From a virus (taxonomy: Duplodnaviria; Caudoviricetes), in IMG/VR virus record IMGVR_UViG_3300015607_004925, positions 32,001 through 96,000 of that record: a stretch of 64,000 nucleotides of DNA; one strand, written 5' to 3'. The position numbers and the translations under genes were made by a program. Shown piece after piece: positions 7,786 to 38,492 of the stretch (positions are counted from its first letter, which is position 1; each line of letters starts with the position of its first letter). The notes under the pieces are model-generated. The model was not told the DNA's origin. It saw nothing but the letters and a program-made list of their open reading frames with translations, and searched no databases.

Positions 7786-8385
7786 TCAGGCTCCTTGTGT
7801 GCCGCGTGCGATCTCGAGGCCCTTGACGTTACCGATTGTAGCGCCGAGACCTGCGAGCAGGGTTGAAAGTGGGACGCCAAGTGGTCCCGTGACAGGATGC
7901 CCGACGAGCTTGTCGATGACGTGGCCGACGCCGTGGCCGACGAGGCCGCCGCCGAGCGTGCCGAGGCCCTGTCCCGCGACGTTGCGCGCGATCTCGCCGC
8001 CGGTCTGTTTACCGCGGACGCCCTCGACGACCGGCCACGCGAGGCCGCCGAGGTCGCCGCCGACGACGTCGCCGAAGTGACCTGCCATCTTCGGGCCGAC
8101 CATCTGCGCACCCGCAACCGCCCACGGTGGGATGTCGGTCATCGCGGCGTCGATGTTGTACGGCGCGCCCGGCGGGATGTTCCGCTCGGCCCGTTCCGCC
8201 TTCTCACGCAGGAGACCGCCGGTGACGCCGCCCGTGACGCCGCCAAGCAGTGCGCCGACGTCGGGCGACAGACCGATCCGTGGACCGAGCGTCTTACCGG
8301 CGAAGCCGCCGAGCGCCGGCCCCGCCACCGCCGGAAAAATGGCGGCGAGGCTCGCGCGCTTGATGAAGAAGCGTTCGACGGACAT
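7786..8385 (-). CDS. Glycine-zipper protein, putative virion cargo/ejection protein
   Basis: Start ATG 8385 (MSVERFFIKRAS...); several GxxxG runs after KRA and KMA. Confidence 0.65.
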   Translation of the reverse strand: MSVERFFIKRASLAAIFPAVAGPALGGFAGKTLGPRIGLSPDVGALLGGVTGGVTGGLLREKAERAERNIPPGAPYNIDAAMTDIPPWAVAGAQMVGPKMAGHFGDVVGGDLGGLAWPVVEGVRGKQTGGEIARNVAGQGLGTLGGGLVGHGVGHVIDKLVGHPVTGPLGVPLSTLLAGLGATIGNVKGLEIARGTQGA

Positions 8386-9113
8386 CAGCCCATCATGCCC
8401 TGGGGCTGTGGGGGCTGCTGCATCTTCTGGCCGAGCGCGCCGCCAGCCATCGATGCGGCCTGGTCGAACGCGGCACCGCCGAGCCCGCCCGCGATGCGCG
8501 GCGCGACCTTGCCCGCGATGCCGCCGAGGGCTTTGCCTGCGACGCCGCGACCGAGCGCGCCGAGGCCCGCGCGCGCGAGCGTCGGGCCCGCGATCGCGCC
8601 GAGCATCGGCAGGAAGGCGACCTTGATGCCGAGCGCGCCGAGCGCGGCTTCGGCGCCGGCGGTGTAGTGGTCGGTGAGCGCGCCGTACTTGCCCGCATGT
8701 CCGTATATGAGCTTCTGTGCCTTGGGCCACAGATTGTAATCCATGCGGCTCAGTGCTTCGGCGGCGGCAGGTTGAGCAAGCGCCGCGGTATCGCGCGCGA
8801 CAGTGTCGATTCCGTGCAGTTGAGAACTGAGGTTTCCGTGCAGCCCGCCCACCCCGGCACCGATGACCGCGTCGCGAAGCGGATGCTCGTCGCCACTGAC
8901 CAGGCTGGCGAGTCCACCGACGCCCGCGCCGAGCGCGGCGCCACCGAGCGGCGAACGCATGAGCGCGCTCGCGTCGAACGCCAGCTTCTCCTCGCGGCCG
9001 TGGTTCTCGCGCGACACGACGATGTTTACGCCGACGCCGCCGTTCTCGCGAAGATGGTGCGAGGCACCTTTCACGAGGTCGGCGATGAACTTGTCGAAGA
9101 AGGCGTCGGACAC
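8385..9113 (-). CDS. Glycine-zipper protein with internal shared helical motif
   Basis: EKLA-FDASAL...GAGVGG; HYTAGAEAALGALGIKVA-FLPMLG. Confidence 0.7.
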   Translation of the reverse strand: MSDAFFDKFIADLVKGASHHLRENGGVGVNIVVSRENHGREEKLAFDASALMRSPLGGAALGAGVGGLASLVSGDEHPLRDAVIGAGVGGLHGNLSSQLHGIDTVARDTAALAQPAAAEALSRMDYNLWPKAQKLIYGHAGKYGALTDHYTAGAEAALGALGIKVAFLPMLGAIAGPTLARAGLGALGRGVAGKALGGIAGKVAPRIAGGLGGAAFDQAASMAGGALGQKMQQPPQPQGMMG

Positions 9114-9128
9114 GGTGGTCTCCTTGGG

Positions 9129-20466: not shown

Positions 20467-21315
20467 TCAGCGGGTCCGCATCCACTGCAAGATCGCACCC
20501 GCCTTGGCAACAACCGCGGACGAGCTGACCTCCGACGCGAACCGCGCGATCACGGTGCCGTTGCTGGATGGCGTGATCACGCCTTCAACCACCGCGACGT
20601 TGCCCGTCGTCAGCGAGGTCGCGTTCGCCGCCGCCGGAGTGTCGTACGCCGTCGCGCTGTTGACCGTGTTCGAGGTCGCCGTCAGCGTGTAGGTGCTGGT
20701 GTAGTTCAACATGGTCGGCGACGCCGGCCCGTTGATCGCCCATCGTGAGCCAGTGGTGGTGGCTGCGCTCGTGTAAGGGATCGTGAACCGGAACCAGTAG
20801 GTCTGCCCCGCCGTGACCGAGAACGACAGCCCCGTCACGTCCGCGATCGTGTTGGCGCTGGCGTTATTGTTCGTGACGTCGCTCGACAGAACAACAGTGT
20901 TGAGGACGCTGACCGTCGGCGACCCGATGACGATCAGCTCCTTGATCCGCCCCGCGATGTCGATGACCTGGGGCTTACCATCCTCGCCGATCGTCAGGGT
21001 CTCGCCGGGCCCAAGCGGCACGGCGTTGACGAGCTGGACGACGTCGGCACCATCGCCGTGGTTCAACGTCACGGTGTTCGACAGCGCGGCGTCGATGTTC
21101 GTGATGTTGATGCACTTCACGCCCTGTGCGGTCGTCGAGCCCACACCTGCGAGGATCGTCGTCGTCGATGCCGTCGTGATCTTGGTGTTGTCATCCTTCG
21201 GCGTCGATGTCGTCGCCGCGTCGACCAGCTCGACCCACGAGACGTGGCAGTCCAAGTCGGCACCTGTGGTGCAGACGACCTCGAGCTTGGCCGACGCGTG
21301 CTTCAGGATGATCAT
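20467..21315 (-). CDS. Fibre-associated beta-rich virion protein
   Basis: 282 aa, Thr/Ser-rich; C-terminal DVTGLSFSVTAGQTYWFRF pattern. Confidence 0.6.
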   Translation of the reverse strand: MIILKHASAKLEVVCTTGADLDCHVSWVELVDAATTSTPKDDNTKITTASTTTILAGVGSTTAQGVKCINITNIDAALSNTVTLNHGDGADVVQLVNAVPLGPGETLTIGEDGKPQVIDIAGRIKELIVIGSPTVSVLNTVVLSSDVTNNNASANTIADVTGLSFSVTAGQTYWFRFTIPYTSAATTTGSRWAINGPASPTMLNYTSTYTLTATSNTVNSATAYDTPAAANATSLTTGNVAVVEGVITPSSNGTVIARFASEVSSSAVVAKAGAILQWMRTR

Positions 21316-22027: not shown

Positions 22028-22432
22028 CTACCTCCGGTTCTTGTTGGCCTTGTGCGAGGTCGGCGGCGCTGCGGGCGCCTCGGGGACGACCGGCGGCGCG
22101 ACCTCGGGCAGGACTTCGACCGGCGGCTCGGACAGTGCCGCGGGCTCGGTCGACACCAGCGGCTCGGTCGACACCAGCGGCTCGGTCGACACCAGCGGCT
22201 CGGTCGACACCAGCGGCTCGGTCGACACCAGCGGCTCGGTCGACACTGCAGGCCTTACTACACGTACCCAGCCGGCGCGCACGACGCGCTGGACGATGTC
22301 GTCGTGGAAGGTCTTGTCGTCGACCTCGCGCTCCTCCTTGGCCTTGAGCGTGAGCGTGCGGCCGAGCAGGTCCTTGAGGGGCGACATGTCCAGCACGCTG
22401 GACGTGGCGTTCGCGATCTTGTGGTTGGGCAT
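22028..22432 (-). CDS. Hypothetical protein with VSTEPL tandem repeats
   Basis: Start ATG 22432 (MPNHKIAN); lies directly downstream of the capsid gene. Confidence 0.65.
   Translation of the reverse strand: MPNHKIANATSSVLDMSPLKDLLGRTLTLKAKEEREVDDKTFHDDIVQRVVRAGWVRVVRPAVSTEPLVSTEPLVSTEPLVSTEPLVSTEPLVSTEPAALSEPPVEVLPEVAPPVVPEAPAAPPTSHKANKNRR
22143..22246. repeat. Perfect 18-bp tandem repeat (ggctcggtcgacaccagc x5 plus 14 bp)
   Basis: Read directly; encodes VSTEPL. Confidence 0.95.
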
Positions 22433-22441
22433 GACTTCCAT

Positions 22442-22447
22442 ATTGTA
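22442..22447 (-). promoter_or_regulatory. Putative late promoter -10 box
   Basis: gtcc-TACAAT-atggaagtc-ATG. Confidence 0.5.
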
Positions 22448-22455
22448 GGACGACA

Positions 22456-22534
22456 AAGGCCGCCTTCCTGGGTCCCGTGTCACGGGAGGAAGACGGCCTT
22501 GGCCCTTCACGTAGGTGACCCGGCCTGCGGGTCA
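22456..22534 (-). terminator. Two stem-loops after the capsid gene (terminator or mRNA stabiliser)
   Basis: tgacccg/cgggtca (22516-22534) and aaggccgccttcct/aggaagacggcctt with inner cccgt/acggg (22456-22500); short U-tract. Confidence 0.6.
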
Positions 22535-22540: not shown

Positions 22541-23479
22541 TCAGGCGAACGGGAAGTCGATACGCTGACCCGCGAGCGTGTTGCCGATGCCGATGCCCGG
22601 CACCGCGTAGGACCAGAACTCGATCATGTCGGCTTCCTGCTTGATGAACAGGGTCGCGTCCTGCAACAGGAAGAACACGCCGAGGTAGTTCTGCGGCGCG
22701 AAGATGTACGCCGAGCGACGGCTGCCGCCGGCGACGTCGTCGACGATCTCGCGCTTGATCGTCGAGACGACCGGGATGCCCCACAGCTTCTCCTCGGCCT
22801 CGATGCCGAGGTCGTAGTGGCGCGACGCGACGTCGTTGCCGACGCTGGTCGCCGGCAGGTCGAGCGCCTCGTAGTAGAGGCTCTTCGTCATCAGCATCTT
22901 GCCGATGGGCTGCTTGCGGTTGACGAGCGCCTGGAAGCCGAGCTTGAACGCCGACGAGTTGAACGACGCGGCCACCGTGCGCTGGGTGGCCAGCGCGAGT
23001 GCGATGATCGCGTTCCACGTGTCCGTGAACTTCTGGTCTTCCTGGTCCGCCATGTCCTTCACCGAGTTGTCGGAGAGGATCTTGCGGATGTCGTTCTGGT
23101 ACGTCATCAGCTCGAACTTGTTCTTGCTGAAGCGCTGCGACTCGGTCTTGCCGAAGAAGACCGAGAAGCGCTTGCCGCGGAACCACGTCCGCTGCGCCGA
23201 GCCGTTGAACGGCACGAACGTGGCGACGGAGTCCGGCTCCTTCTCGACGATCTTCTTCGGCTGGTCCGTGTTCTCGTCGCGGTCGATCTCGTCGTCCCCG
23301 AGCATCACGGGCTCGATGATCTCGCGCGCGAAGGACTCCTGGCGGAGCTTCTGGCGGATGAACGCCGTGCCCTCCGCTTCGGCTTCCTTCGTGCGACCGT
23401 CGTCGATCTTGCGCACGAAGTTCGAGTTGATGAACTGCGCGCTGACCTGCTGGGTCTGGGTCTTGTACGCCGTGGGCAT
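22541..23479 (-). CDS. Major capsid protein (HK97-fold expected)
   Basis: 312 aa; follows protease, scaffold and decoration genes; RQESFAREII and LWGIPVVSTIK...YIFA...GIGIGN patterns; strong codon bias; hairpins downstream. Confidence 0.75.
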   Translation of the reverse strand: MPTAYKTQTQQVSAQFINSNFVRKIDDGRTKEAEAEGTAFIRQKLRQESFAREIIEPVMLGDDEIDRDENTDQPKKIVEKEPDSVATFVPFNGSAQRTWFRGKRFSVFFGKTESQRFSKNKFELMTYQNDIRKILSDNSVKDMADQEDQKFTDTWNAIIALALATQRTVAASFNSSAFKLGFQALVNRKQPIGKMLMTKSLYYEALDLPATSVGNDVASRHYDLGIEAEEKLWGIPVVSTIKREIVDDVAGGSRRSAYIFAPQNYLGVFFLLQDATLFIKQEADMIEFWSYAVPGIGIGNTLAGQRIDFPFA

Positions 23480-24004: not shown

Positions 24005-24358
24005 CTACGAATTGATCCAGCTGAGGAACCGATCGTCGGCGGCGTCCGCAGCTTCCTTGGTGGTCTTCGGGGTCGTGTCTGGCTCCGGCGAAGTGCCGGC
24101 GCCGAGGGAGTCGAGGGTGCCCGCCTGCTTGACGAGCTGGCTCTCGATGTAGTCGAGCGCCGCGTCATCGGCCTTGGCGAGCTTCTGCCGGTCGACGTCA
24201 GACAGCTCCTCGCCGTTGGCGGCGAGGTGTGCCGTCGCGATCTTGTCGAGACGGGCCTTGCGCGCGGTCTCGACCGCGGCCGTCTTCTTGGACTCGTTCT
24301 CGTCGACGTAGTCCGCGGCTGCCTCGAGGACGGCGGCGAGCTTGTTCAGGTCAGCCAT
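24005..24358 (-). CDS. Putative scaffold-like protein
   Basis: Helical, acidic; several KxA sites. Confidence 0.6.
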   Translation of the reverse strand: MADLNKLAAVLEAAADYVDENESKKTAAVETARKARLDKIATAHLAANGEELSDVDRQKLAKADDAALDYIESQLVKQAGTLDSLGAGTSPEPDTTPKTTKEAADAADDRFLSWINS

Positions 24359-24506: not shown

Positions 24507-24718
24507 AGGGCCTCCATGAGGTCGGCGTAGGTGATGTCGACGGGCGCGTTGCGCACTTCGTCGGCGAGCTTGCGGAGGTCGCGTGCGAGGTCAGTGCGCG
24601 GCGCCGCCGCCGCTTCCTTGACCGCACGCGCTTCGTCGGCACGGCGACGTGTCGCGGCGTTCGCCTCGGCGAGGACCTCGTCGACGACGAGGGAGAGGTG
24701 GTTGCGGGCGCGGCTCAC
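24503..24718 (-). CDS. Small helical head-assembly protein
   Basis: 71 aa; KEAA and KLAD sites. Confidence 0.65.
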   Translation of the reverse strand: MSRARNHLSLVVDEVLAEANAATRRRADEARAVKEAAAAPRTDLARDLRKLADEVRNAPVDITYADLMEAL

Positions 24719-24999
24719 GGCTGAACCGCCTGCATGGGATGCTGCGCCGCGTGGAGTGCGTCGATGATACGCGGGCCAGCGATGCCGGCCGCGACACCCG
24801 CGCCGAACGACGTGTTCCGTGCGCGGTTGCGCGCTTCTTCGTCGTGTGCGTGCGTGAGCAGCGCGCCGAGCGCGCCGCCACCGAGCGCCCCCGCACCGCC
24901 CGCGAGCAACGCCTTGACGAGCGCGGGGTTCGCGGCGGCCTTGACCTCTGCGGCCTGCTTGAGGCGCACGAGGACGTCGATGTTCACGACGGGGCTCAT
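24715..24999 (-). CDS. Glycine-zipper protein
   Basis: LKQAAEVKAAA then LLAGGAGALGGGALGALL. Confidence 0.65.
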   Translation of the reverse strand: MSPVVNIDVLVRLKQAAEVKAAANPALVKALLAGGAGALGGGALGALLTHAHDEEARNRARNTSFGAGVAAGIAGPRIIDALHAAQHPMQAVQP

Positions 25000-25002: not shown

Positions 25003-25584
25003 CTAGCGGCTCGCCGCCTCCACGAGCGCCTGGCCACGCTTGAAGCCCTCGACGAAGACGTCGCTGGCGAGCTTGTAGACCTGCGCCATCTGGTCGTTCC
25101 AGCCCTTGACGTAGGCGTCCTCGCCGAGCTTCTCGAGCTGAGCGATGGTCGTGGCGTAGCCCAGCTCCGCGGCCTCCTTGACGAGGTCCGGGTTCTCGGC
25201 GGCGAACTTCTCGAACGAGCCGTCGCTCGCGGTCTTCACCGGCGCGGGCTGCGCGGCAGCGACCTTGCGGGCGGCCTCGTCGTACTGCGCGGCACGCGCC
25301 ATGAAGCCGTCGCAGATCGCTGCGCCGTACAGCTGCGCCTCCTTGACGAGCGCCTCGTGCTCGGCCTTCGAGAGGTCGGCGGCGATCTTCGTCATGTCCT
25401 CGATCGGCGAGGTCTGGCTCGCCGTCTTGGTGGACGCGTCGGGCGCGGTCGCCTCTTTGAGCGCCTGCTTGAGGCGCTCGCCCGCGTCACTGGTGGGAGC
25501 AGTCGTCGACGGAGCGGGCGTCGCCGCCGCGGTCTTCGTCGTGGGCGCTGCGCCCATCCTGGTGAGTGCGTCTGAGAGCTTCAT
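25003..25584 (-). CDS. Putative major scaffolding protein
   Basis: Start ATG 25584 (MKLSDAL); Ala-rich helical; many KxA sites. Confidence 0.65.
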   Translation of the reverse strand: MKLSDALTRMGAAPTTKTAAATPAPSTTAPTSDAGERLKQALKEATAPDASTKTASQTSPIEDMTKIAADLSKAEHEALVKEAQLYGAAICDGFMARAAQYDEAARKVAAAQPAPVKTASDGSFEKFAAENPDLVKEAAELGYATTIAQLEKLGEDAYVKGWNDQMAQVYKLASDVFVEGFKRGQALVEAASR

Positions 25585-25645: not shown

Positions 25646-27391
25646 TCACCGGCTAGCCAGGGCCACAGCGCCCAGTGCTTCCGCCACCGCGTCCATGTTC
25701 GTCGTCGAGGACGTCTTGACGTGCGAGAAGTCGATGGTCGGATGCGGCGTGTTCGCGCACTCGATCAGGTGAACGATCGACGAGAGCGATGCGCTCTTCA
25801 TCGTCAGCTCCGTGATGTCCGGGATCTCATATCCCTCGTCGGTGCGCATGGTGTCGCCAGGCCGCTTGCCGAGCGCGCCGGCGCCGAGCGCGCCGGCGCC
25901 GAGCGCGAGCGGTAGCTTGAAGCGGCGCATCCACGGGTACGCGGTGAGCGCCTTGTAGCCGCCGAGGAGTAGTGCGCTGCCGCCGAGCACCTTGCCCATG
26001 TGTGCGCGCGTGACCGCGTCCTGTGCGTCGATGGCCGCGCCGCGCGTCGTCTGGTACGGGCCCACGTTGAGCACGTCCGTCGTCGGCGCCGCGTCGTCGC
26101 GCATGTCGATGCCCTCGGGCACGAGGCGCCGGTACAGGTACTCGCCCATGTACGCGCGCTTGACGAACGCGCCGTCGAAGAACGTCGTCGCGTCGCGCGC
26201 GATCTTCTCCGCTTCGAGCACACCACTGTCGAGCACCTCGTCGAGCAGCTCGGGGCTGTCGGCGAACAGCTCGAGCGCGCGGCGCGACGCCGCCGCGACC
26301 TTCGCGACGAGTTCGTGCGTCAGCGCGACGCGCGCGCCCGCGAGCTTGTTCACCGCGAGCGGGATGAACTCGGCGTCCTTGAGCACGATGCCGCGCGCCG
26401 CCGCCGCGGACAGCGCCTCGCCGAGCGGCCACGCTGCGAGCTTGTCGACGTCGACGTTGATCGAACTCGCGAGCTTGCCGCGTGCGTGGTCGCGGAACTT
26501 GACGATGAGCGACTTCTCGTCGGGCGAGAGCGTGCTCGACGCGATCGGTTCGGCGCGAATCACCTTGTCGATCTCGGACAGCTTCTGCGCGGCCGCGGCC
26601 TTCGCCGCGAGCGCCTCGGACTCCGCGCCGAGATCCGCCGACAGCCGAATCTCGGGGACGTCGGCGACCTTCTTCAGCGTGTAGCCGGTGCGATCCGCCG
26701 GACGGAACACGCGCGAGATGTCGAAGAAGTCGGGCGACGGGTTGTGGACGTAGTCCTTGAACCCGTTCGCGTCGATCTGGTTCATCGCGAACTTGACGTG
26801 GTCGCAGTAGTCCGCGCGCGTCGGCGCCTGGTTGCCGCAGCGCGCGCAGACGTCGTACTTGATCCGACAGCCCATGCTGACGGGCACGAACTCGCCGTCG
26901 TTGGCGCGCTTGACCCATTCGGGGTCCTTCGCATTGTCGACGGAGACGAGCAGCTCCACGCGGTGCATGCGCGGGTTCCAGAACGCACGCTTCACGACGC
27001 CCGACGCCTTCGCGGGATCGCGGTTTGCGTGGTGTTGGAACGTGTGCGCGGGATTCGTCTCGAACGACTGGTAGTGCTTCGTCAGCTCCTGACCGGGCTC
27101 GATGAACCACCGCCGGCCCGACGACGCGAACTTGCCGCGCGCCGGCACGGGGCGCTCGGGGAAGCCATCGCCGTTGCGGTTCGGTCCGTACGTCTCCTCG
27201 GCGCCCATCGCGTTGAGCAGGAGGATCGTCTTGCCCGGCTCGGGCATGACGCTCTTGATGTAGTCAAGTGCTTCGCTCGCGTGCTTCGTGATGCGGCTGG
27301 TGTCGACGCGGCCACCGCCCCAGATGAGCACGGGCTGCACGGTCGCCTCGCCCGTCGGGAAGTACTCGTCCAGCTCGATCAGCTTCCTCAT
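25646..27391 (-). CDS. Prohead maturation serine protease with long C-terminal extension
   Basis: FQHHAN (His), VSMGC (Ser) followed by CARC..C.H, FFDISRVFRPAD: assemblin/HK97-type protease motifs; start ATG 27391 (ATGA overlap) or 27400. Confidence 0.8.
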   Translation of the reverse strand: MRKLIELDEYFPTGEATVQPVLIWGGGRVDTSRITKHASEALDYIKSVMPEPGKTILLLNAMGAEETYGPNRNGDGFPERPVPARGKFASSGRRWFIEPGQELTKHYQSFETNPAHTFQHHANRDPAKASGVVKRAFWNPRMHRVELLVSVDNAKDPEWVKRANDGEFVPVSMGCRIKYDVCARCGNQAPTRADYCDHVKFAMNQIDANGFKDYVHNPSPDFFDISRVFRPADRTGYTLKKVADVPEIRLSADLGAESEALAAKAAAAQKLSEIDKVIRAEPIASSTLSPDEKSLIVKFRDHARGKLASSINVDVDKLAAWPLGEALSAAAARGIVLKDAEFIPLAVNKLAGARVALTHELVAKVAAASRRALELFADSPELLDEVLDSGVLEAEKIARDATTFFDGAFVKRAYMGEYLYRRLVPEGIDMRDDAAPTTDVLNVGPYQTTRGAAIDAQDAVTRAHMGKVLGGSALLLGGYKALTAYPWMRRFKLPLALGAGALGAGALGKRPGDTMRTDEGYEIPDITELTMKSASLSSIVHLIECANTPHPTIDFSHVKTSSTTNMDAVAEALGAVALASR

Positions 27392-27927
27392 GCGAGCCAT
27401 CCTCGCACGAGCCGCATCGAATCGCCGCGATGGACGACCAGCTGGACGAGCGCGGCGTGCTTGTGGCGTTCGTCGACGAGTTGCGCGACGCCGTCCTCGA
27501 GCAAGTCGTCAACCATGATCGCCGCGGCGATCTTCGTCGGGTCGTCGTTGCCGGCCGGCGCGGCCGCGGGGTGCGTGCCCCGGTTCGCCAAGAGCCCGCC
27601 GAGCGCCTGCATGCCGCCGACGCCGGCGGCGGTGAGCAGCGCCTGGTTGCGCGCGTCGCGCACGAGCGCCTCGCCCTGGTGACGCGCATCGCGCGCGAGC
27701 AGGTGGCCGACGCCGAGCGCGGGCAGGCCGAGGCCAACGCCCCAGCCCAGCCCCTTCTGCAGCGCGGAGAGCGCCGCCGGGTCGAGCGCAGCGCGCTTGA
27801 ACAGCCCGAACGCGGCGAAGTCAGCGAGCGCCTGGCGCTGACGTAGCTCGGCGGACGCCGGGCGCGCGCTCGCGACCTTCTCCGCGAAGAAGCGTGAGGT
27901 CTCGACGGCGCGGGCAACGTCGTTCAT
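27388..27927 (-). CDS. Glycine-zipper protein with KxA sites
   Basis: FKRAA...GLGWGVGLGLPALGVG. Confidence 0.65.
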   Translation of the reverse strand: MNDVARAVETSRFFAEKVASARPASAELRQRQALADFAAFGLFKRAALDPAALSALQKGLGWGVGLGLPALGVGHLLARDARHQGEALVRDARNQALLTAAGVGGMQALGGLLANRGTHPAAAPAGNDDPTKIAAAIMVDDLLEDGVAQLVDERHKHAALVQLVVHRGDSMRLVRGWLA

Positions 27928-27930: not shown

Positions 27931-28380
27931 TCACGGCATCCCGCGCAGCGCGCCGGCGACTTCCTGGTTGAGCCCGCCCGGCAGTGCGCCGATGTCGCGG
28001 ATCGCGCCGCCCGCGCCGCCGAGCAGCGCGCCGATGCCCATCGACGGCAGCACGCTGCCCTGGTTCGGGTCGTTCGAGAGGAAGTGCGGGACCGCGGCGA
28101 TCGCAGCGCCACCGAGCGCCGGCATGACCGAGCGCTTGAGCAGTGCGGACAGTGCCGGGTTCTCGGCGATCTTCTCGCCGACGAGGGCGCCGTACGCCGA
28201 GATGCCGTCAGCGATCGCGCGCGCCTCCTTGCGCCGGAGCCACGCCTTCATGCCGACGAGGGCGACGGCCTCCTTGAGGCCCATCTCGGAGACGCCGGAC
28301 ATCGCGCCAGCGACCTTGTGGAGGCCTGCTGCGGCGACGGCGTGACGGACGGACGGCGGAACGAGATCGTCGAGGGTCAT
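27931..28380 (-). CDS. Glycine-zipper protein with KxA sites
   Basis: HKVAG, EKIAE; GIGALLGGAGG. Confidence 0.65.
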   Translation of the reverse strand: MTLDDLVPPSVRHAVAAAGLHKVAGAMSGVSEMGLKEAVALVGMKAWLRRKEARAIADGISAYGALVGEKIAENPALSALLKRSVMPALGGAAIAAVPHFLSNDPNQGSVLPSMGIGALLGGAGGAIRDIGALPGGLNQEVAGALRGMP

Positions 28381-29642
28381 TGGACACGGTCTCCGGGGTG
28401 GTGAGACATCAGTTCGTCGAGCACCGGGGCCACGCCACGCGGCACGGAGCGCTTGAGGGTGGACTCATTGGAGGGAAAATGTTCCATGGAAACGTAGGGC
28501 AGCCCGGCGGCGCCCGTTGCTACGTGGGGGTCCGGTCGGACGCCGCTGAACGTGGGAAAGCTCTCCGTTACCCCGTCGATGCGGCGCTTGTTGGGCGCGA
28601 CGGATGGCGTGGCACCTTGGAAGCGGCCGTCCGAAGCGTCAGGCGTATTCAGGTGTCCATGCAGCGCTCCGCCGAGCCCGCCGAGCGCGCCGCCAGTCAA
28701 CGCGCCGCGCAGCGCGCCGCCGCCGCGGTCGTCCTTGTCGGCCATCGCGCCCGAGATGCCGCCGACTGCGGCGCCGGCGAGCGCCGGCTTCGCCGCCGCC
28801 TGCAGCAACGCGTGCAGGTCGACTGCCTTCTTCTCGCCGGTCACCGCGCGCTCCGCGTCCGCGACGAGCTTGATCGACATGAAGTCTGGGCCCGAGCCCG
28901 ACGTGACGGCCTGGCGGAGGAACGACCGCACGGCGTTCTTGTCGGTCGAGAGGACCGGCGCGAAGCGCGACATCGTGTGGTAGGCCTCCATCAGCGTGGC
29001 GTCGTCGGCGCCGGCGAGCACCGGGTCGTTGCGCTTCAGATCGCCGATGATAGCATCGCGCGCGGCCTGGTCGCCGGCGTGACCCGCGGCCTCCATCGCC
29101 TTGTTCGCGATGTCGCGGAGTAGGCCGAAGCCCGCCTTGCCCGCCTCGCTCGAGAACGAGTCGAGCGCCTTGCGGCCGCCGAGCGAGAGCGCGTCCTGGC
29201 GCTGCCCGAACTCCTGGCCGAACATCTTGCGCTCGACGAGCTTGCTGAGGCCCGACGCGATGCCGCCGGCGGGAGCGCTGGCGATCTGGCCGAGCCCCTT
29301 GGACGCGAAATTCGCGGCCGCACCACCGGCATCCGCGACAGTCTTGCCCGTCGCCAGGTTCGCGCCCATGTTCTTGAGCGGACCGCCGACGTTCTTGCCC
29401 ATCGACTGCCACATCTGCGCGAGCGGCAACGCGAGCGGCAGCGGCAACGCCGCCATCTTGTACGGCGGCGTCGGATCGTGGTTCAGCTGCTGTTCGGTCG
29501 CGTGCGCCCGCTGCACTGCCTTGTGGACGATGCCGGGGATCATCGCCCCGACCGCGAGCGGCAGCATGACGCCGGCGCGCTTCTCGAGGTGGCGACGCAC
29601 GCCCTCACGGGCGGCGAGTTCGAGGACTTCGCTCAGCTGCAC
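28377..29642 (-). CDS. Multi-segment protein with glycine zippers and KxA sites
   Basis: EKRA-GVMLPL, YKMA-ALPL, EKKA-VDL..GAAVGG; central helical domain. Confidence 0.7.
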   Translation of the reverse strand: MQLSEVLELAAREGVRRHLEKRAGVMLPLAVGAMIPGIVHKAVQRAHATEQQLNHDPTPPYKMAALPLPLALPLAQMWQSMGKNVGGPLKNMGANLATGKTVADAGGAAANFASKGLGQIASAPAGGIASGLSKLVERKMFGQEFGQRQDALSLGGRKALDSFSSEAGKAGFGLLRDIANKAMEAAGHAGDQAARDAIIGDLKRNDPVLAGADDATLMEAYHTMSRFAPVLSTDKNAVRSFLRQAVTSGSGPDFMSIKLVADAERAVTGEKKAVDLHALLQAAAKPALAGAAVGGISGAMADKDDRGGGALRGALTGGALGGLGGALHGHLNTPDASDGRFQGATPSVAPNKRRIDGVTESFPTFSGVRPDPHVATGAAGLPYVSMEHFPSNESTLKRSVPRGVAPVLDELMSHHPGDRVQ

Positions 29643-30559
29643 TGGCCCCTCACGTGTTCGATGCCCTGCTTGATGCGCGACGCTTCCGCCGCGATCTTCA
29701 CGAGCGTGGCGAACGTCCGGTTCGCTTCGGTGTCGTCGACGAGGTGGCGGTCCGCCAGCGCGGCCGTCTTGATGGTGGCTTCGTCGGGCGACGTGACGGG
29801 CCAGCCACGCGCCTCTTGCACCATCGCCAGGACGACACGGCCCGCGGAGCTGTCATGTAGCGCGAGCGCGTCCTTCTCGAACACGGCGGGGGTCGGTGCG
29901 CCGTGTGCGCGGCGGAGCTGGGTCTGGAGTGCGCTGAACGCGTCGTCGAACGCCAGCTCGGCCTGCTTGAGTTGGTCCTCGAGGACGTCTGCGAGCTTGC
30001 GCAGGCGGCGACCACGGAACGCGGCTTCCTTGGCCTCGTCCTTCTTCGCGGCTGACGGCGGCGCCTTCTTCGGCTTCTTGTCCGCGTCGTCCTTGGCCTT
30101 CTGTTTTTGGCCCTTGGGGAACGGGCCATCGTTGTCGTCGTCGATCGGAGCGTCGTCCTCGTCGCCGTCGCGGAGGTCCTGGGCCGCCGGCGGCGCGCCG
30201 TGCGCGCCCATCTCGTCGGGCAGCGACATCTCGTCGCCGTCGGGCTCCGCGTGCGGCAGCGCGCCGTCGTCAGGGTGCGCGCCGCCCATCTGGCCCATGA
30301 GCAGCTGCAGGATCTGGCGCGCGTCGATCGGGTCGAACTCGCTCGTCATGTCCGGCGTGCCCTGCGCCTTCTGCTGCTCCATGAGCCGCAGGAACGCCAT
30401 CGTGTTCGCGGAGTGCGCGAGCCGATCGATCTGGTCGGGGTTGAGCTGGCTCTGCTGCGCCTCGGCCGCCGCGACGTCGGCGAGCTTCTCGCCGCGCATG
30501 AAGCGGTCGACCACGCGCGTGGCCATCTTCTCGAAGTCCTGTTCTTGGTACGCGCGCAT
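29633..30559 (-). CDS. Hypothetical head-assembly protein
   Basis: 308 aa; LNPDQIDRLAHSAN; acidic linker; KxA-rich. Confidence 0.7.
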   Translation of the reverse strand: MRAYQEQDFEKMATRVVDRFMRGEKLADVAAAEAQQSQLNPDQIDRLAHSANTMAFLRLMEQQKAQGTPDMTSEFDPIDARQILQLLMGQMGGAHPDDGALPHAEPDGDEMSLPDEMGAHGAPPAAQDLRDGDEDDAPIDDDNDGPFPKGQKQKAKDDADKKPKKAPPSAAKKDEAKEAAFRGRRLRKLADVLEDQLKQAELAFDDAFSALQTQLRRAHGAPTPAVFEKDALALHDSSAGRVVLAMVQEARGWPVTSPDEATIKTAALADRHLVDDTEANRTFATLVKIAAEASRIKQGIEHVRGQCS

Positions 30560-34061: not shown

Positions 34062-34235
34062 TCAGCTGGTCGTCGGGAAGGAGACGACCTTGGGGATGTT
34101 CGCGGCAGGTGACGCGCCGCCCAGCTCCCGCGTCTTCTTCGCCTTCAAGACGCTGAGGTTGGGGTTGAGGATCTCGGCGAGCTTCTCCTCGATCGCTTCG
34201 CGGCCCGCCAGGCGAATGTGGCGGGGAAGGCTCAC
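34062..34235 (-). CDS. Small hypothetical protein (57 aa)
   Basis: GTG 34235 overlapping upstream stop: MSLPRHIRLAGREAIEEKLAE... Confidence 0.55.
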   Translation of the reverse strand: MSLPRHIRLAGREAIEEKLAEILNPNLSVLKAKKTRELGGASPAANIPKVVSFPTTS

Positions 34236-35548
34236 GACGAGGCGGCCCGCTGCGCCGCGGTCGCGCGACGGAACATGTTGCGGAGCGACGCTTCCTTCTT
34301 GTCGTCGTCCTTGTCGTCGTCCTTCTTGCCCTCCATCTTCTCGCGGATGAAGTCGGGCATGCCGCCCTTGTCCTTGTCGCCATCGTCCTTCTTCTCGTCC
34401 TTCTTCATGAAGGGCGGGAGGGCGCCGTCCTCGGCCGACTTCGTGCCCTGGTTGCCGCCACGGCCGTCGTACGCGCCGGGACGCGAGTGCGTCGCCTCGG
34501 GCGAGTGCTTCTGGTAGCCGTCGGTGCGCGAGCCCGGCGGCGTCGCCGACGGCGCGGCGGCGACGCGCTCCGCGGCCTCCTTCTGGAGGCCGCTGAGGTA
34601 GTGGTACTTCTCCTCGGTGTTGAGGCCCATGCACATGCGGACGGTCGCGATCTTCACGTCCTCGGTCATCGAGCCCGGCAGGAACTCGTGGATCTCGGCG
34701 GCGGTCTTCTTGAACAGCGCGATGTACGGGTCCTCGCCCGCGGCCTTCGCCGAGGTCTCGGTCACCGAGTTCGAGCCGCTCGGGGTCTCCGCCGGCTTGT
34801 TCGGCTGCGGCGTCTCGCGGCCGATGACCGCCGGACCGCGCACGTGTTCCATCATGGCGCCGAGTCCGCCCTGCGAGGGCAGCACGGCGTAGCCCGCGGG
34901 ACGCTGCGCGGCGTCCATCTTCGCCTCGGCGGACGACATCTCCATGTTGCCCTTGTCGCCGCCCATGATCGTCGAGCCCTCGGCCGCCTTCTGGAAGAGC
35001 GCCCGCAGCGACGACGACTTGGTCTGGTCGTTCGGCGAGTTCTCCTTGTGGTCGGTCTCCTTCGGGGCGTTCGGCTGCGGGGCCTCCTTGCCGACCGCAC
35101 CCGGGCGCGTGTCGACGTCGGTCTTGCCGCGGCTGTCCTCGGCGTAGCCCGGCGGGCGCTGCGAGGCGTCCATCTTCGTCTCGCCCGCCGGCGCCTGGCC
35201 CTGATCGTTGCCCTTGTCGCCGCCCTCGATCGTCGAGCCCTCGGCCGCCTTGGTCATCAGCTGCTCCGCGCTGCGATCCGCGAGCGCGCGGACGTCGTCC
35301 CACGAGGCGAGCTTGTTCCATCCGGCCGCCTTGAAGTTCGGCTGGCGCTTGAACCACTCGCTCGCCTCCAGAATCTGCGCCGCGACCTTCTGGTCGTCTG
35401 CGGGGCTCACGCCGCGCTCGAGGTCGAGGTTCACGTGGTCTGCGATGTAGTCGGCGACCTTGTGTGCGGTGCCCTCGTCGGGGAACATGGCGTGGCCGCT
35501 GTTGACCAGCGCAGTCTGGATGCCTCGGACGTACGCGTGCTTGAACAT
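34232..35548 (-). CDS. Head/core protein with shared N-terminal motif and internal duplication
   Basis: MFKHAYVRGIQTAL; two copies of KAAEGSTIxGGDKGN...KMDAxQRPxGYA...PQPN; GAGGAG RBS. Confidence 0.75.
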   Translation of the reverse strand: MFKHAYVRGIQTALVNSGHAMFPDEGTAHKVADYIADHVNLDLERGVSPADDQKVAAQILEASEWFKRQPNFKAAGWNKLASWDDVRALADRSAEQLMTKAAEGSTIEGGDKGNDQGQAPAGETKMDASQRPPGYAEDSRGKTDVDTRPGAVGKEAPQPNAPKETDHKENSPNDQTKSSSLRALFQKAAEGSTIMGGDKGNMEMSSAEAKMDAAQRPAGYAVLPSQGGLGAMMEHVRGPAVIGRETPQPNKPAETPSGSNSVTETSAKAAGEDPYIALFKKTAAEIHEFLPGSMTEDVKIATVRMCMGLNTEEKYHYLSGLQKEAAERVAAAPSATPPGSRTDGYQKHSPEATHSRPGAYDGRGGNQGTKSAEDGALPPFMKKDEKKDDGDKDKGGMPDFIREKMEGKKDDDKDDDKKEASLRNMFRRATAAQRAASS

Positions 35549-35584
35549 GAGATCTCCTCGAGGGGCTCTTGGCGGAACGTTGAA

Positions 35585-35590
35585 ATGATA
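35585..35590 (-). promoter_or_regulatory. Putative late promoter -10 box
   Basis: gccc-TATCAT-ttca. Confidence 0.55.
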
Positions 35591-35616
35591 GGGCGCTCGC
35601 GGGTTTTATCCAACGA

Positions 35617-35814
35617 TCACCCGAGGACCTTCGCCTTCGGCGCGCCGGCTGCCATCGCTGGCGCTGCCGGCGCCGGCGCCGCAGACGGAGGGGGGCTGGT
35701 GCCGGCTTGCCCGGTAAGCATCGGGTTGTAGCCCGCTGCCCCCTGTTGCATGTTGCCGAGCTTGAGATGGGCGAGTGCGTCGCGCGCACCTTGTGTGTAC
35801 TTGGACCGGATCAT
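35617..35814 (-). CDS. Small protein with shared N-terminal motif
   Basis: MIRSKYTQGARDALAHLKLG. Confidence 0.7.
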   Translation of the reverse strand: MIRSKYTQGARDALAHLKLGNMQQGAAGYNPMLTGQAGTSPPPSAAPAPAAPAMAAGAPKAKVLG

Positions 35815-36266
35815 AGGGGTTGCTCCTTCGGGTGTGACCCCAGCAGATGTCCGATGCCACGGCCCAATGAGGCGCCCGCGCGGCCGAGGATTGGTGCGCC
35901 AAGAATGCCGAGCGCGGGGTAGCCGTACATCGAGCCGGCAAGCCCCCCGAGCGCGCCGAGCGCCCCGGCGAGGCGGCCTTCGTGCGGGTCGGGATGTGTG
36001 AGCTGTGAGGCAAGCCCCGCACCCGCCGCGAGCGTGCTCGCGCGCGCAAGCCAGTTGAAGCGCGATCCGGCAGGACCGCTGACCGCGGGCCAGAAGACGC
36101 TCTTGGGCGACAAGAAGCCGCCCTCGCCGAACGCCTTCGGGCCCTCGATGAATGCACGGCCTGGCTGGCCAACGAGACCCTGGGCGACGTGCGACAGCAT
36201 GTTGGCTGCGATCTTGAGGCGCGCGAGCGCGTCAGCCGCGCCGCGTGCGTGGGCCTGTTTCAACAT
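35811..36266 (-). CDS. Glycine-zipper protein with shared N-terminal motif
   Basis: MLKQAHARGAADALARLKIAA; GALGALGGLAG. Confidence 0.7.
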   Translation of the reverse strand: MLKQAHARGAADALARLKIAANMLSHVAQGLVGQPGRAFIEGPKAFGEGGFLSPKSVFWPAVSGPAGSRFNWLARASTLAAGAGLASQLTHPDPHEGRLAGALGALGGLAGSMYGYPALGILGAPILGRAGASLGRGIGHLLGSHPKEQPL

Positions 36267-38047
36267 CAGTACGCCCCCTCGGCGCCTTGGCCGAACTCAG
36301 TGCCCGCGACGTACGCTGGCACAGGCGACGCGCCGTGGAGGTTGGACACGTCGCCGCGATGGATGCCCGCGAGCAACGACTCCTTGAGGTAGCGGTGCGC
36401 GAGGCGCGCCATCCAGTCGGGGTTGAGCAGCGGCGTGCGGGACGCCGGGCGCATGAGCGGCATCGCGCGCGGGCCGCTGTCGGCGATCGCGACCGACGTG
36501 ATGCCGTGGCGCACGAGGTTCTGCGCGATGGTCGGGGTGACCGCAGTGCCCGCGGTGTAGTGGAGGATGCCGTCGGCCAACGTCTCGCCGTGCGCCTCGG
36601 CGATCGGCACGCGCCGGCGCGACGCCGCGAGCGCGGCGTGGAACTTGTTGTAGTCGACGACGTCGCCCTTGATGAACGCGTCGTCGGGCCCGGGGTCGGT
36701 GATCTGCACGTGGTTGAGCACGCTCTTGGCCAGGGTCTCGAGGTGGCGCTTGTCGACCTCGGAGCCTGCTCGCTTGTACACGTCCGCAAGCGCGTCCACC
36801 AGGTAGCGGCGCCCGTCGCCCAGGCCCTTGTGGCGGACGATCTCGTCGGGCTTGGGCACGCCGTCGGAGAGCGTGTCGCCGGCGTACGTCGACTGCCCCA
36901 CGCCGACGAGCACGCGGTGGTCGGGCGGGACGTAGTGGCGCTCGTCGTCGACCATCACGTAGTGGCCGCCCTGGGGCGCCTTGTCGATCGCCTTGATGAC
37001 GCCGTCGCGCCCGGCGAGCACGGCCTTGTGCGCGAACGACGTCGGGATCTCGAGCAGCGAGCGCACGCCCTTCATGCCCTCGAGCTTCTTCTCGTCGTCG
37101 GTCTTCGTGATGCGCCCGCCGTGCTTGGCGTTGAGCGAGAACTGGGTGAGCGGCTCCGACAGCGCCTGCGCCGCGCGCATGCCGACGTTGGTGCCGATCG
37201 GGTGCACCGTGCCCGTCGGCGACAGCCCTTGGCACTTCTGGCAGACGCCGTGCGCGGCCTCGCAGGTCATCGGCGATCGCACGATGACGCTCTTGTTCGC
37301 GGCGGCGAGCTGCGAGGCGACCTGCGGCGTGATGAGGCGGTTCGTGCCCGCCTCGTAGCGGTCGATGATGTGCGGGTCGACGCCGGCCATCGCGATGCCG
37401 TTCTTCGTGCCGCAGTCGACCGTCGTCACGAGCTGGTCGCTCATGTTGTTGACGAGGATCTTGGCGAGGTCGCCGGGCTCGACGACGGAGATGTTCGAGA
37501 GCACCGCGTTGACGCGCGCCTCGCCGCCGGCCACCCACGCGTCGGCGGGCTTGAGGCCCTCGCTGAAGCTCTTGTCGATCAGCCAGGGCACGACCTTGCC
37601 CTTGGAGTCGCGCACCATCACCGGCGCGCCGACGGCGCGCATCAGCTGCGCGGCGTTGCCGCGGCCGCCGGAGCGCACCATCTCGCCCATCGTGCCCGGG
37701 TGCTTCTTCGCCAGCTCGAGCATCGCGTTCTGCGCGCCCGCGAGCGCCTTCTCCTTGTCGGCGGTCGACGTCGCCTTGCGGAACGCGTCGACGTGCGGCT
37801 TGAGCGCGGCGTCGCGCTCGCCCGTGCGGGGCGCGATGTCGTCGAGCCCGACCGAGATGCCGTCGAGCGTCGCGATCTCGTCGCCGAGGCGCTTGAGTTT
37901 GGTGACGACGTCGGGGTACTTGTCCGGCGCCTCCTTCGCGACGCCGACGAGCAGCTCGTTCAGCGACCCCTTGGTGAGCACGCCGCGACCGCGCCACTTC
38001 TCGGGAAGCGCTTGATCGACGAGGTGCCTGCCCAGGGTGGTCGCCAT
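36266..38047 (-). CDS. rpoC: DNA-directed RNA polymerase, beta' C-terminal half
   Basis: TTLGR; MVRSGGRG; bridge-helix-like ARVNAVLSNISVVEPGDLAKIL; DCGT...RSPMTC..GVCQKC Zn site; trigger loop AAQALSEPLTQFSLNAKHGG; DKRHLE. Confidence 0.9.
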   Translation of the reverse strand: MATTLGRHLVDQALPEKWRGRGVLTKGSLNELLVGVAKEAPDKYPDVVTKLKRLGDEIATLDGISVGLDDIAPRTGERDAALKPHVDAFRKATSTADKEKALAGAQNAMLELAKKHPGTMGEMVRSGGRGNAAQLMRAVGAPVMVRDSKGKVVPWLIDKSFSEGLKPADAWVAGGEARVNAVLSNISVVEPGDLAKILVNNMSDQLVTTVDCGTKNGIAMAGVDPHIIDRYEAGTNRLITPQVASQLAAANKSVIVRSPMTCEAAHGVCQKCQGLSPTGTVHPIGTNVGMRAAQALSEPLTQFSLNAKHGGRITKTDDEKKLEGMKGVRSLLEIPTSFAHKAVLAGRDGVIKAIDKAPQGGHYVMVDDERHYVPPDHRVLVGVGQSTYAGDTLSDGVPKPDEIVRHKGLGDGRRYLVDALADVYKRAGSEVDKRHLETLAKSVLNHVQITDPGPDDAFIKGDVVDYNKFHAALAASRRRVPIAEAHGETLADGILHYTAGTAVTPTIAQNLVRHGITSVAIADSGPRAMPLMRPASRTPLLNPDWMARLAHRYLKESLLAGIHRGDVSNLHGASPVPAYVAGTEFGQGAEGAY

Positions 38048-38048
38048 C

Positions 38049-38492
38049 TCACATCGGGCCGTAGCCGCCCTGCATCATCTGCTGCTGGCGGCGCCGCTCC
38101 TCCGCCTGTTGGTTGTGGCGGTGGAGCATGTAGAGCCCGCCGCCGGCGATGAGCGACGGCGCGAGGGTCTTGAGGTTGCCGACCGCCGCGCCGCGCGCGG
38201 CCGCGCCGGCCTCGGGCGACGGCGCGCCGCCGAGCCCCTGGCGGAGGTTGCCGAACAGCGCCTTCGCGGCGTCGAGCTGACCGGAGCCGAACGCCTTGGC
38301 GCGGCCCATCAGGCCGCCGGCCGCCGCCGGCGGCGCCGCGGGCGACGCCGCGGGCGACGGACCGGGCCCGAGACCGGCCGGGCCGAGATCGAGATGCGTC
38401 GCGACCCCCGGTGCGACGGTGTTCGCGTGCTTCTCGAGGCCGAGACAGCGGAGCGCGTCGGCCCGCCCCTGGGCCATGTATCGTTCGAGCAT
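38049..38492 (-). CDS. Gly/Ala-rich protein with shared N-terminal motif
   Basis: MLERYMAQGRADALRCLGLEKHA. Confidence 0.7.
   Translation of the reverse strand: MLERYMAQGRADALRCLGLEKHANTVAPGVATHLDLGPAGLGPGPSPAASPAAPPAAAGGLMGRAKAFGSGQLDAAKALFGNLRQGLGGAPSPEAGAAARGAAVGNLKTLAPSLIAGGGLYMLHRHNQQAEERRRQQQMMQGGYGPM

Follow-up and report, generated by a model that had tools for sequence, protein, structure and literature searches.

The 64,000-nucleotide stretch analyzed here (hereafter the window) is part of the complete 184,915 bp genome of an uncultured phage, which encodes about 229 proteins. The gene for the major capsid protein was used as an anchor in the search for relatives and returned at least 138 IMG/VR contigs, many of them 150-197 kb long. 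The features considered below are the following.

7786..8385 (-): Gly-zipper protein 1, 199 aa, ATG at 8385, with KRA at 8353-8361
8385..9113 (-): Gly-zipper protein 2, 242 aa, with KLA at 8979-8987 and a helical tag followed by KVA at 8616-8624
22541..23479 (-): major capsid protein, 312 aa, by synteny with gp226 of Salmonella phage Arash
24005..24358 (-): small head-module protein, 117 aa, 6 K-x-A, from K-x-A count and orthologue alignment
24715..24999 (-): Gly-zipper protein 3, 94 aa, with a leader, KAA at 24934-24942 and two conserved Gly-rich helices
25003..25584 (-): scaffold-like acidic Ala-rich protein, 193 aa, 11 K-x-A, from K-x-A count and orthologue conservation
25646..27400 (-): prohead maturation protease, 584 aa, from phrog_18299 and an AF2 fold match
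26663..26671 (-): candidate autocleavage site KVA/D, protease residues 244-246, invariant in orthologues
27278..27286 (-): candidate autocleavage site KHA/S, protease residues 39-41, from K39 conservation
27388..27927 (-): Gly-zipper protein 4, 179 aa, with KRA at 27790-27798 and a zipper 12 residues downstream
27931..28380 (-): Gly-zipper protein 5, 149 aa, with KIA at 28165-28173 and a zipper 10 residues downstream
28377..29642 (-): Gly-zipper protein 6, 421 aa, with KRA at 29574-29582 and KKA at 28824-28832
35811..36266 (-): Gly-zipper protein 7, 151 aa, with an N-terminal helical tag ending in KIA at 36207-36215
36266..38047 (-): RNA polymerase beta-prime C-half, 593 aa (Pfam Rpb1_5)
38049..38492 (-): Gly-rich protein 8, 147 aa, with a similar N-terminal tag ending in KHA at 38424-38432
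39508..43857 (-): fused RNA polymerase beta and beta-prime N-half, 1449 aa (Pfam Rpb2_6, Rpb1_2)

The original prediction held that glycine-zipper peptides begin right after K-x-A sites in at least eight proteins of the head region. The ten K-x-A tripeptides and the residues that follow each of them are all present in the minus-strand open reading frames at the coordinates checked. The eight proteins account for eight of the ten highest Gly-zipper densities in the genome, but the two encoded at 7786-9113 lie outside the head block, beside a baseplate-hub-like gene, and may not be head proteins given these neighbors. Against the Pfam glycine-zipper clan, the product of 8385-9113 scores above threshold (Gly-zipper_YMGG, 30.9 bits for a cut-off of 28.9), and the other seven remain below it (17.1 for 7786-8385 and 15.5 for 28377-29642) or have no match. 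A PHROG search at E 0.01, made with described ejection-protein families in view (T7 gp14-16, P22 gp7/16/20, N4), gave no match for any of the eight, although a distant relationship may exist.

The arrangement of sites and zippers varies from protein to protein. Protein 1 has an 11-residue leader, then KRA, with the zipper immediately after; in protein 2, KLA and the tagged KVA each precede a zipper; in protein 6, a hydrophobic segment directly follows KRA. In protein 3, residues G34, F65-G-A-G68, A70, G72 and P76 are invariant in orthologues, and an AF2 model of low confidence predicts three helices with a break just past the KAA site. Protein 6 is orthologous to Arash gp221 and to the ORF at 8698-9354 of the relative L003, as judged by eye from a shared C-terminal domain. 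Zipper segments were defined as hydrophobic Gly-rich stretches with a Kyte-Doolittle 15-residue mean of at least 1.2, and adjacency as a distance within 12 residues. With this rule, the first zipper segment is adjacent to K-x-A in 6 of the 8 proteins (permutation p 0.007), whereas the segments of proteins 7 and 8 lie 78 residues downstream of KIA and 85 residues downstream of KHA, respectively. When all zipper segments of the window are counted, adjacency falls to 7/15 (p 0.11). It is found for 4/4 in Vibrio phage D69 (p 0.015) and for 2/10 in Arash (p 0.79). Adjacency of zippers to K-x-A is not general.

The motif itself has a wider distribution. Among the 400 patterns of the form a-x-b, K-x-A is the top outlier in the head module, with 98 occurrences versus 44.7 expected from the composition of each protein itself (p 3.9e-12, ~2.2-fold). 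The remaining virion genes on the minus strand (33 versus 26 expected) and the remainder of the genome (203 versus 178.7 expected) show no K-x-A excess. Within the head module, the 2.19-fold enrichment is restricted to this spacing and order, KA, KxxA, AxK and RxA not being enriched (0.6-1.24). K-x-A is not peculiar to the zipper proteins; its enrichment spans the whole head module, scaffold-like protein and protease included. The residue after the motif (P1') is Ala in 33% of the cases and Ser in 13%. The densest carriers are the protease (15 motifs), the scaffold-like protein (11 in 193 aa) and the product of 24005-24358 (6 in 117 aa), which are those that would be expected as substrates of a prohead protease. 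K-x-A also ranks first in 28/28 IMG/VR loci tested, with protease identity down to 37%, these loci being kin to one another and hence not independent tests. The same rank is found in Arash (48 versus 24.8 expected) and in D69 (44% GC; 49 versus 21.9 expected).

Orthologue alignments show that Lys and Ala are conserved, while the P2 residue and the flanks drift. The scaffold-like protein illustrates this best: 53/53 orthologues retain its site at residue 17, where flank identity is 0.18, and 50/53 retain that at residue 53. Eight of the ten flagged sites keep Lys and Ala, with ratios of 14/16 for KAA of 24715-24999, 11/12 for KRA of 27388-27927, 9/9 for KIA of 27931-28380, 9/10 for KRA at residue 21 of 28377-29642, and 4/5 for KRA of 7786-8385, where P2 is variable. 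In 35811-36266 and 38049-38492, a K-x-A is found at most 1-2 positions from the KIA and KHA sites in 10/11 and 7/10 orthologues, respectively. KKA at residue 271 of 28377-29642 is poorly conserved (3/10). None of the four K-x-A sites of 8385-9113 is kept in its single full-length orthologue (0/1). In three relatives (L130, L132 and L037), proteins 1 and 2 are fused in a single ORF, with K-x-A at the junction in two of the three and K-G-G in the third; these fused orthologues carry a K-I-A counterpart of the KLA at residue 43 of protein 2. For the KVA at residue 164, the one support is the helical tag before the site.

The gene at 25646..27400 encodes a candidate for the enzyme acting at these sites. 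Its product matches phrog_18299, head maturation protease (E 2.6e-8), and belongs to a large family whose 1188 protein clusters all lack a name; Pfam contains no entry for this protease domain. Pfam Peptidase_S77 (T4 gp21) and S78 (HK97) have no match in the whole genome, even at E 10, and a search of the protease against PDB chains gave no sequence-level match. The AF2 model (pLDDT 68.8, 70-90 in the core) nevertheless superimposes on T4 gp21 (5jbl_B, Z 9.7, rmsd 3.2, 131/164 residues) and on the herpes assemblins, i.e. the VZV, PRV, HSV, HCMV and KSHV proteases (Z 6-8.5), although the Foldseek E-values are weak (0.02-0.8). As modeled, its fold is that of T4 gp21 and the herpes assemblins. 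H123 and H124 (His-His) and S175 (Ser-Met-Gly) are invariant in 26 orthologues, in the order His before Ser. Two conserved K-x-A sites bracket the folded N-terminal domain (about residues 42-246), one at each edge. At the first, K39 is near-invariant (90% or more of the 26 orthologues), Ala occupies P1 in most of them, and S42 follows; residues 1-40 are disordered in the model, and a cut at KHA/S would remove an N-terminal propeptide. At the second, K244-V-A246 is invariant in the 26 orthologues and falls in a low-confidence linker (241-253). The C-terminal extension contains many further K-x-A and a Gly-zipper segment of its own (residues 471-512).

A short N-terminal leader ending at K-x-A is common to unrelated putative cargo proteins. 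K-x-A occurs in the first 13 residues of 10/51 virion-module genes versus 8/178 genes elsewhere (p 0.0014). A regular expression for the helical tag gives 15 matches versus 3.9 in shuffles, 35811-36266 and 8385-9113 among them; with K-x-A just after, there are 6 matches versus 0.2 in shuffles, all in virion genes.

The zipper genes are also interspersed with those of an RNA polymerase. The fused subunit of 39508..43857 is 36% identical to Arash gp206, which has the top spectra count in Arash virions, and Arash gp216 (606 aa, annotated as an RNA polymerase subunit), the positional counterpart of 36266..38047, is detected there as well. RNA polymerase homologues are the most abundant proteins of Arash virions, and the polymerase of 39508..43857 is probably a packaged cargo encoded among the zipper-protein genes. 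The Arash Gly-zipper proteins gp213, gp220, gp221 and gp224 were detected in the same virion preparation, which also contains many replication enzymes: ribonucleotide reductase and primase are among its 116 "structural" proteins. Peptide coverage of gp221, gp223 and gp224 is about 100%, leaders included. Because leaders are covered and replication enzymes are listed, the Arash proteome shows no processing and proves no packaging; with its low specificity, it suggests that the zipper proteins are packaged.

Overall, we consider that K-x-A is the P3-P1 recognition motif of the phage's own prohead protease, and that the zipper proteins are processed, packaged and ejected, with a probability of roughly two in three. 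Action of the protease at K-x-A, as originally proposed, is well supported, albeit indirectly, by the spacing-specific enrichment, the conservation of Lys and Ala, the recurrence in relatives and the assemblin-fold protease gene next door. Cleavage at these sites is inferred from sequence. The motif would place Lys at P3 and Ala at P1 and leave P2 free; by analogy with known systems, the protease would cut after Ala, and not after Lys. It would trim itself at its two conserved sites, cut core proteins, the scaffold-like one among them, at many positions, and strip N-terminal leaders of 11 to ~70 residues from small head proteins. The helical tag present in some leaders may direct proteins into the prohead, as the capsid targeting sequence of T4 does. 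Substrates would include the eight flagged proteins and the C-terminal extension of the protease, and the mature parts would start at or near Gly/Ala-rich, marginally hydrophobic helices. The mature zipper proteins would be packaged, probably remaining in the head with the two-gene RNA polymerase, and would be ejected along with the DNA. Once exposed by the cut, their Gly-rich N-termini could insert into the envelope of the host; this membrane action appears to be the least supported part of the explanation.

The zipper helices are marginally hydrophobic (Kyte-Doolittle 19-residue maximum 1.0-1.86 for the eight proteins, 3/8 reaching 1.6) and too Gly-rich for classical transmembrane helices. 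This weakens the proposal that the peptides form an ejection conduit or act on membranes. GxxxG motifs pack soluble helices too. A possible alternative, which we hold at well under even odds, is that the proteins are cut as proposed, with helices unrelated to membranes that serve as packing or oligomerization modules of the prohead core, or as inner-body-type filler. The marginal hydrophobicity, the similar segment in the C-terminal extension of the protease and the need for these segments to stay soluble within the capsid fit such a role, whereas their long uncharged runs and conserved Gly spacing, the one protein above the Gly-zipper_YMGG threshold and the likely resemblance of a freed Gly-rich N-terminus to a membrane-inserting peptide argue against it.

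More speculatively, maturation cleavage might prime capsid-internal fusion-peptide-like proteins that, on ejection, insert into the inner membrane of the host and open or line a route for DNA and the large packaged RNA polymerase. The nodavirus gamma peptide is a capsid-internal membrane-active peptide freed by maturation cleavage, and influenza HA2 and HIV gp41 carry Gly-rich fusion peptides exposed by cleavage. Here too, cleavage would uncover an N-terminus rich in Gly/Ala and weakly hydrophobic, to be kept inside or on the particle until entry, a functional analogy with no homology claimed. Equally doubtful is the idea that, among viruses of bacteria, these primed proteins might play the part of the gamma peptide or parallel the priming of HA2.

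It is unlikely that the zipper segments tether core proteins to the cytoplasmic membrane during assembly, with K-x-A cutting freeing the prohead as in T4. T4 and SPN3US proheads do leave the inner membrane at proteolytic maturation (PMC9026906, PMC10052503), and K-x-A sites lie right beside hydrophobic segments; however, most of the proteins would lose the leader, so that the zipper stays on the larger fragment, and no segment reaches signal-anchor hydrophobicity. Just as improbable is a K-x-A that is not cleaved and acts as a binding or targeting motif, or as a lysine-modification site, read by the scaffold, the portal or an enzyme. Enrichment and conservation reveal selection on the motif, not its chemistry, Arash peptides cover the leaders, and K-x-A often ends a shared helical tag. 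Nevertheless, the scaffold-like protein and the linkers of the protease are rich in the motif, which also stands at both edges of the protease domain, and its form, a free residue between two fixed ones, is that of the cleavage codes known for proteases of the same fold. Finally, secreted, leader-cleaved, bacteriocin-like pore formers are very improbable, the original analogy with class II bacteriocins being a loose resemblance (a leader, then a Gly-rich hydrophobic peptide) that fails because the sites are K-x-A and not G-G, double-glycine leaders and signal peptides are absent, the complete genome has no C39 peptidase transporter (no match to PF03412, with positive controls that worked), and the genes sit inside a head-assembly block with which they are conserved across the phage family.

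If the K-x-A code is confirmed, the head cargo of a whole phage group becomes readable from sequence, including the RNA polymerase packaged in the virion, whose subunits are unusually arranged, and the code and the leader tag could serve to direct foreign proteins into the capsids. The recurrence of Gly-rich hydrophobic helices just after putative cut sites offers a testable idea of how a contractile-tailed phage moves large proteins across the inner membrane.

As to known systems, the likeness of the zippers to Pfam PF13441 (Gly-zipper_YMGG) and PF13488 (Gly-zipper_Omp) consists of repeated G-x-x-x-G in short hydrophobic helices, a low-complexity similarity that says little on descent. Herpes assemblins cut at Ala/Ser, with the consensus V/L/I-x-A then S. 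They share with the phage protease, as read here, the predicted fold, Ala at P1, a preference for Ser/Ala at P1', and a protease fused to a scaffold-like C-terminal part from which it releases itself. In contrast, their P3 is aliphatic where Lys is found here, and the present case is a phage with dozens of putative substrates. In T4, phiKZ and SPN3US, the known P1 of prohead proteases of the gp21/assemblin fold is Glu (PMC9026906, PMC10052503), and the literature searched holds no description of a Lys-x-Ala code for any phage. Precedents for a P3-x-P1 code, for short targeting propeptides at the N-terminus and for a scaffold cut at multiple sites come from T4 and SPN3US (PMC9026906, PMC10052503). 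T4 gp21 cuts at L/I-x-E sites, and capsid targeting sequences (CTS) are carried by the internal proteins IPI-III and Alt (PMC9026906). On the present reading, the phage resembles T4 in its protease fold and in a code of three residues of which P3 and P1 are fixed. In both, scaffold and core proteins contain many sites, the cargo has short leaders at its N-terminus, the protease is probably trimmed at both ends, and its gene lies beside those of the scaffold and the capsid. T4 differs by its Leu/Ile-x-Glu code in place of Lys-x-Ala, with no sequence-level similarity, and lacks the multisubunit RNA polymerase cargo and the Gly-zipper protein set found here. The closest parallels in head content are the giant phages phiKZ and SPN3US, whose heads contain ejection proteins as well as a virion RNA polymerase (PMC10052503, PMC9026906). 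Their gp175 and gp245 are likewise diverged gp21-like proteases with many processed internal head proteins (PMC10052503, PMC9026906), and the virion-packaged polymerase (packaging being probable here) is multisubunit in both cases. Another shared trait would be the propeptides, which measure 20-24 residues or far more and contain repeated motifs; we found no report of Gly-zipper cargo in these two phages in the literature searched. They differ from the present phage in having Glu at P1 (S/A/G-x-E, and A-x-E for the SPN3US protease; PMC10052503) and a polymerase split into four or five subunits, whereas here beta and the N-half of beta-prime are fused.

The window corresponds to bases 32001-96000 of a single 184,915-bp contig (66.5% GC) with direct terminal repeats at its ends, and the virus record is rated 100% complete. 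Between about 600 and 46354, the genes of the window are encoded by the minus strand. Listed in their order of transcription, the main features of the head block are:

44567-46354, minus strand: portal-sized gene
39508-43857, minus strand: RNA polymerase beta fused to the N-terminal half of beta-prime (Pfam)
36266-38047, minus strand: C-terminal half of RNA polymerase beta-prime (Pfam)
25646-27400, minus strand: protease-like gene, matching phrog_18299 (head maturation protease)
25003-25584, minus strand: scaffold-like gene, product Ala-rich and acidic
22541-23479, minus strand: capsid-protein gene (312 aa)

Several unannotated proteins are also encoded between the polymerase genes and the protease-like gene. 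The nearest named phage is Salmonella phage Arash (36% polymerase identity, same gene order), followed by Vibrio phages D181, D148 and D69. In Arash virion preparations, the two polymerase proteins rank with the most abundant components (PMC10585845). With the capsid protein as query, 138 related contigs were retrieved from IMG/VR, many of them 150-197 kb long, and the protease retrieved 1188 protein clusters, all unnamed; the window therefore belongs to a large, essentially uncharacterised phage group. Two small genes have features of their own. Just past the capsid gene, the product of 22028-22483 (minus strand) carries the unit S-T-E-P-L-V six times in tandem, ahead of a Pro/Ala-rich tail. 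The interval between the two polymerase genes contains a 179-aa ORF (38952-39491, minus strand) shared with just 4 related loci; its product has a LAGLIDADG-like motif close to the N-terminus and probably represents a homing endonuclease of the free-standing type.

Across the head module, the tripeptide K-x-A (Lys-any-Ala) is the strongest outlier among 400 a-x-b patterns, with 98 occurrences against 44.7 expected from the composition of each protein (p 3.9e-12), the runner-up reaching p 5e-4. The remaining virion genes show no such excess, nor does the rest of the genome. The enrichment (2.19-fold) is peculiar to Lys and Ala in this order and at this spacing: KA, KxxA, AxK and RxA are not enriched, so that a simple by-product of Ala/Lys-rich helices is ruled out. 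K-x-A is not confined to glycine-zipper proteins, as it occurs 11 times in the scaffold-like protein (193 aa), 15 times in the protease, and 6, 9 and 15 times in the products of 24005-24358 (117 aa), 29633-30559 and 34232-35548, respectively. The residue that follows is Ala at 33% of the sites and Ser at 13%. Among orthologous head modules, K-x-A ranks first of the 400 patterns in 28/28 IMG/VR loci tested, and likewise in Arash (48 vs 24.8) and in D69 (49 vs 21.9, in a genome of 44% GC). These loci are mutually related, so the tests are not fully independent, but protease identity across them falls to 37% and base composition differs widely.

When orthologues from IMG/VR loci are aligned, the Lys and Ala of the motif are conserved against a variable middle residue and variable flanks. 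One site of the scaffold-like protein is retained in 53/53 sequences at a flank identity of 0.18, and another in 50/53. The sites associated with the eight flagged zipper proteins, all on the minus strand, behave as follows:

7786-8385: pre-zipper K-x-A kept in 4/5 orthologues
8385-9113: none of the four K-x-A sites present in the sole full-length orthologue; K-I-A in front of the counterpart of its first zipper in three fused orthologues
24715-24999: pre-zipper K-x-A kept in 14/16
27388-27927: pre-zipper K-x-A kept in 11/12
27931-28380: pre-zipper K-x-A kept in 9/9
28377-29642: K-x-A at residue 21 kept in 9/10, KKA at residue 271 in only 3/10
35811-36266: K-x-A one or two positions away at most in 10/11
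38049-38492: K-x-A one or two positions away at most in 7/10

The protease (584 aa) itself carries conserved K-x-A sites. In an alignment of 26 orthologues, His123-His124, Ser175-Met-Gly and Lys244-Val-Ala246 are invariant; Lys39 is near-invariant and is followed in most sequences by Ala two residues later, then Ser42. The AlphaFold2 model (pLDDT 68.8, 70-90 in the core) is disordered at exactly residues 1-40 and 241-253, and the two conserved sites therefore bracket the folded protease domain. Nearly all top Foldseek matches of this model are herpesvirus proteases, with weak E-values, and VIA-align superposes it on T4 gp21 (Z 9.7, rmsd 3.2, 131 residues) and on herpes assemblins (Z 6-8.5). 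Pfam S77 and S78 gave no sequence-level match, and a profile of the alignment searched against PDB sequences returned only noise, matching no PDB chain; the assignment therefore rests on the PHROG match and on the fold. Within the protease domain, residues 185-201 (26800-26860, minus strand) form an invariant Cys-x-x-Cys...Cys-x-His cluster that may be a zinc site; we know of no zinc site in T4 gp21 or herpes assemblins. In some relatives (P0018, P0027, P0030, P0049 and others), the protease gene reaches about 945 aa and contains intein and homing-endonuclease domains (PF05203, PF14528, PF14890), which suggests that an intein has inserted in it.

The original prediction held that glycine-zipper peptides begin right after K-x-A in at least eight head-region proteins. 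All ten cited sites and their following residues are present as described (10/10). The start of the first flagged ORF should be placed at the ATG at 8385, not 8730. Ranked by glycine-zipper density among about 229 predicted proteins, the flagged eight fill 8 of the top 10 places. With hydrophobic Gly-rich segments picked by a fixed rule, adjacency holds for the first segment, which lies at most 12 residues from K-x-A in 6/8 proteins (permutation p 0.007), and weakens when all segments are counted (7/15, p 0.11). For 35811-36266 and for 38049-38492, some 80 residues separate the cited site from the zipper downstream. Such segments begin at K-x-A in 4/4 cases in D69 (p 0.015) versus 2/10 in Arash (p 0.79), so adjacency should be seen as a trend and not as a general rule. 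Gly-rich hydrophobic helices recur at the same gene positions in a related locus (L003), in Arash (gp213, gp220, gp221, gp224) and in D69, and a ninth zipper lies in the C-terminal extension of the protease itself. Region 7786-9113 adjoins a baseplate-hub-like gene, so the two flagged proteins encoded there may belong elsewhere than in the head. Orthologues of these two neighbors are joined in one ORF in three related loci (L130, L132, L037), a polyprotein-like layout whose junction is an exact K-x-A in two and K-G-G in the third.

A helical tag, aromatic-x-x-G-x-x-x-A-L-x-x-L, runs straight into K-x-A in several otherwise unrelated virion proteins, among them those of 8385-9113, 35811-36266 and 38492-38965. 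The tag alone gives 15 matches against 3.9 in shuffles; with K-x-A just after it, 6 against 0.2, all in virion genes. In addition, K-x-A occurs in the first 13 residues of 10/51 virion-module genes versus 8/178 elsewhere (p 0.0014). By analogy with T4, tag and early K-x-A look like a targeting leader ending in a cut site. K-x-A also lies 3-11 residues from the start codon in the products of 74-622, 625-990, 20467-21315, 24005-24358 and 34232-35548 (minus strand), which suggests that very short leaders at the N-terminus are not limited to the head block.

The zipper helices were expected to be membrane-active, and their hydrophobicity proved only marginal (Kyte-Doolittle 19-residue maximum 1.0-1.86). 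Insertion energies of +2.5 to +8.6 kcal/mol, simple sums on an approximate Hessa scale, are rough and indicative only. True transmembrane segments in this genome are illustrated by 1687-2079, 2092-2538, 6143-6478 and 6720-7013 (minus strand), small proteins that carry either a lipoprotein-type signal or helices of strong hydrophobicity and may be a lysis cassette or membrane proteins. For the 94-aa zipper protein (24715-24999), AlphaFold2 gives three helices with a break directly after the site, in a low-confidence model (pLDDT 57, pTM 0.23) used for helix boundaries only; an ESM Atlas search with it stayed at chance level (scores <=0.84). None of the eight proteins matched a PHROG family, and in Pfam only 8385-9113 exceeded a glycine-zipper threshold (marginal Gly-zipper_YMGG). 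Literature searches on glycine zippers in ejection proteins, or on a protease code of the K-x-A type, turned up nothing of relevance.

Overall, the association of zippers with K-x-A is real, but it forms part of a K-x-A code that extends across the head module, and cleavage by the phage's own assemblin-fold prohead protease is most likely the mechanism. Cutting would free mature internal head proteins with Gly/Ala-rich helices in their N-terminal regions. Packaging of the zipper proteins is plausible from gene position and the Arash data. The Arash virion proteome comprises 116 proteins, replication enzymes included, at near-complete coverage that extends to the leaders; given this low specificity, it neither shows nor excludes processing. 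It is an attractive hypothesis that the helices might insert in a membrane or form a conduit; the analogy with class II bacteriocins fails.

Herpes assemblins cut at Ala|Ser, and the P1 and P1' preferences at K-x-A are alike. In T4, gp21 recognises L/I-x-E and cuts behind it; it breaks down the scaffold at numerous positions and takes 10-residue capsid targeting sequences off internal proteins (PMC9026906). In SPN3US, whose head contains a virion RNA polymerase, gp245 cuts after A-x-E, and the propeptides that it takes off are 20-24 or 111-254 residues long (PMC10052503). The present phage shares with both the form of the motif, with P3 and P1 fixed and P2 free, and the same substrate distribution, whereas the code itself, K-x-A, differs.
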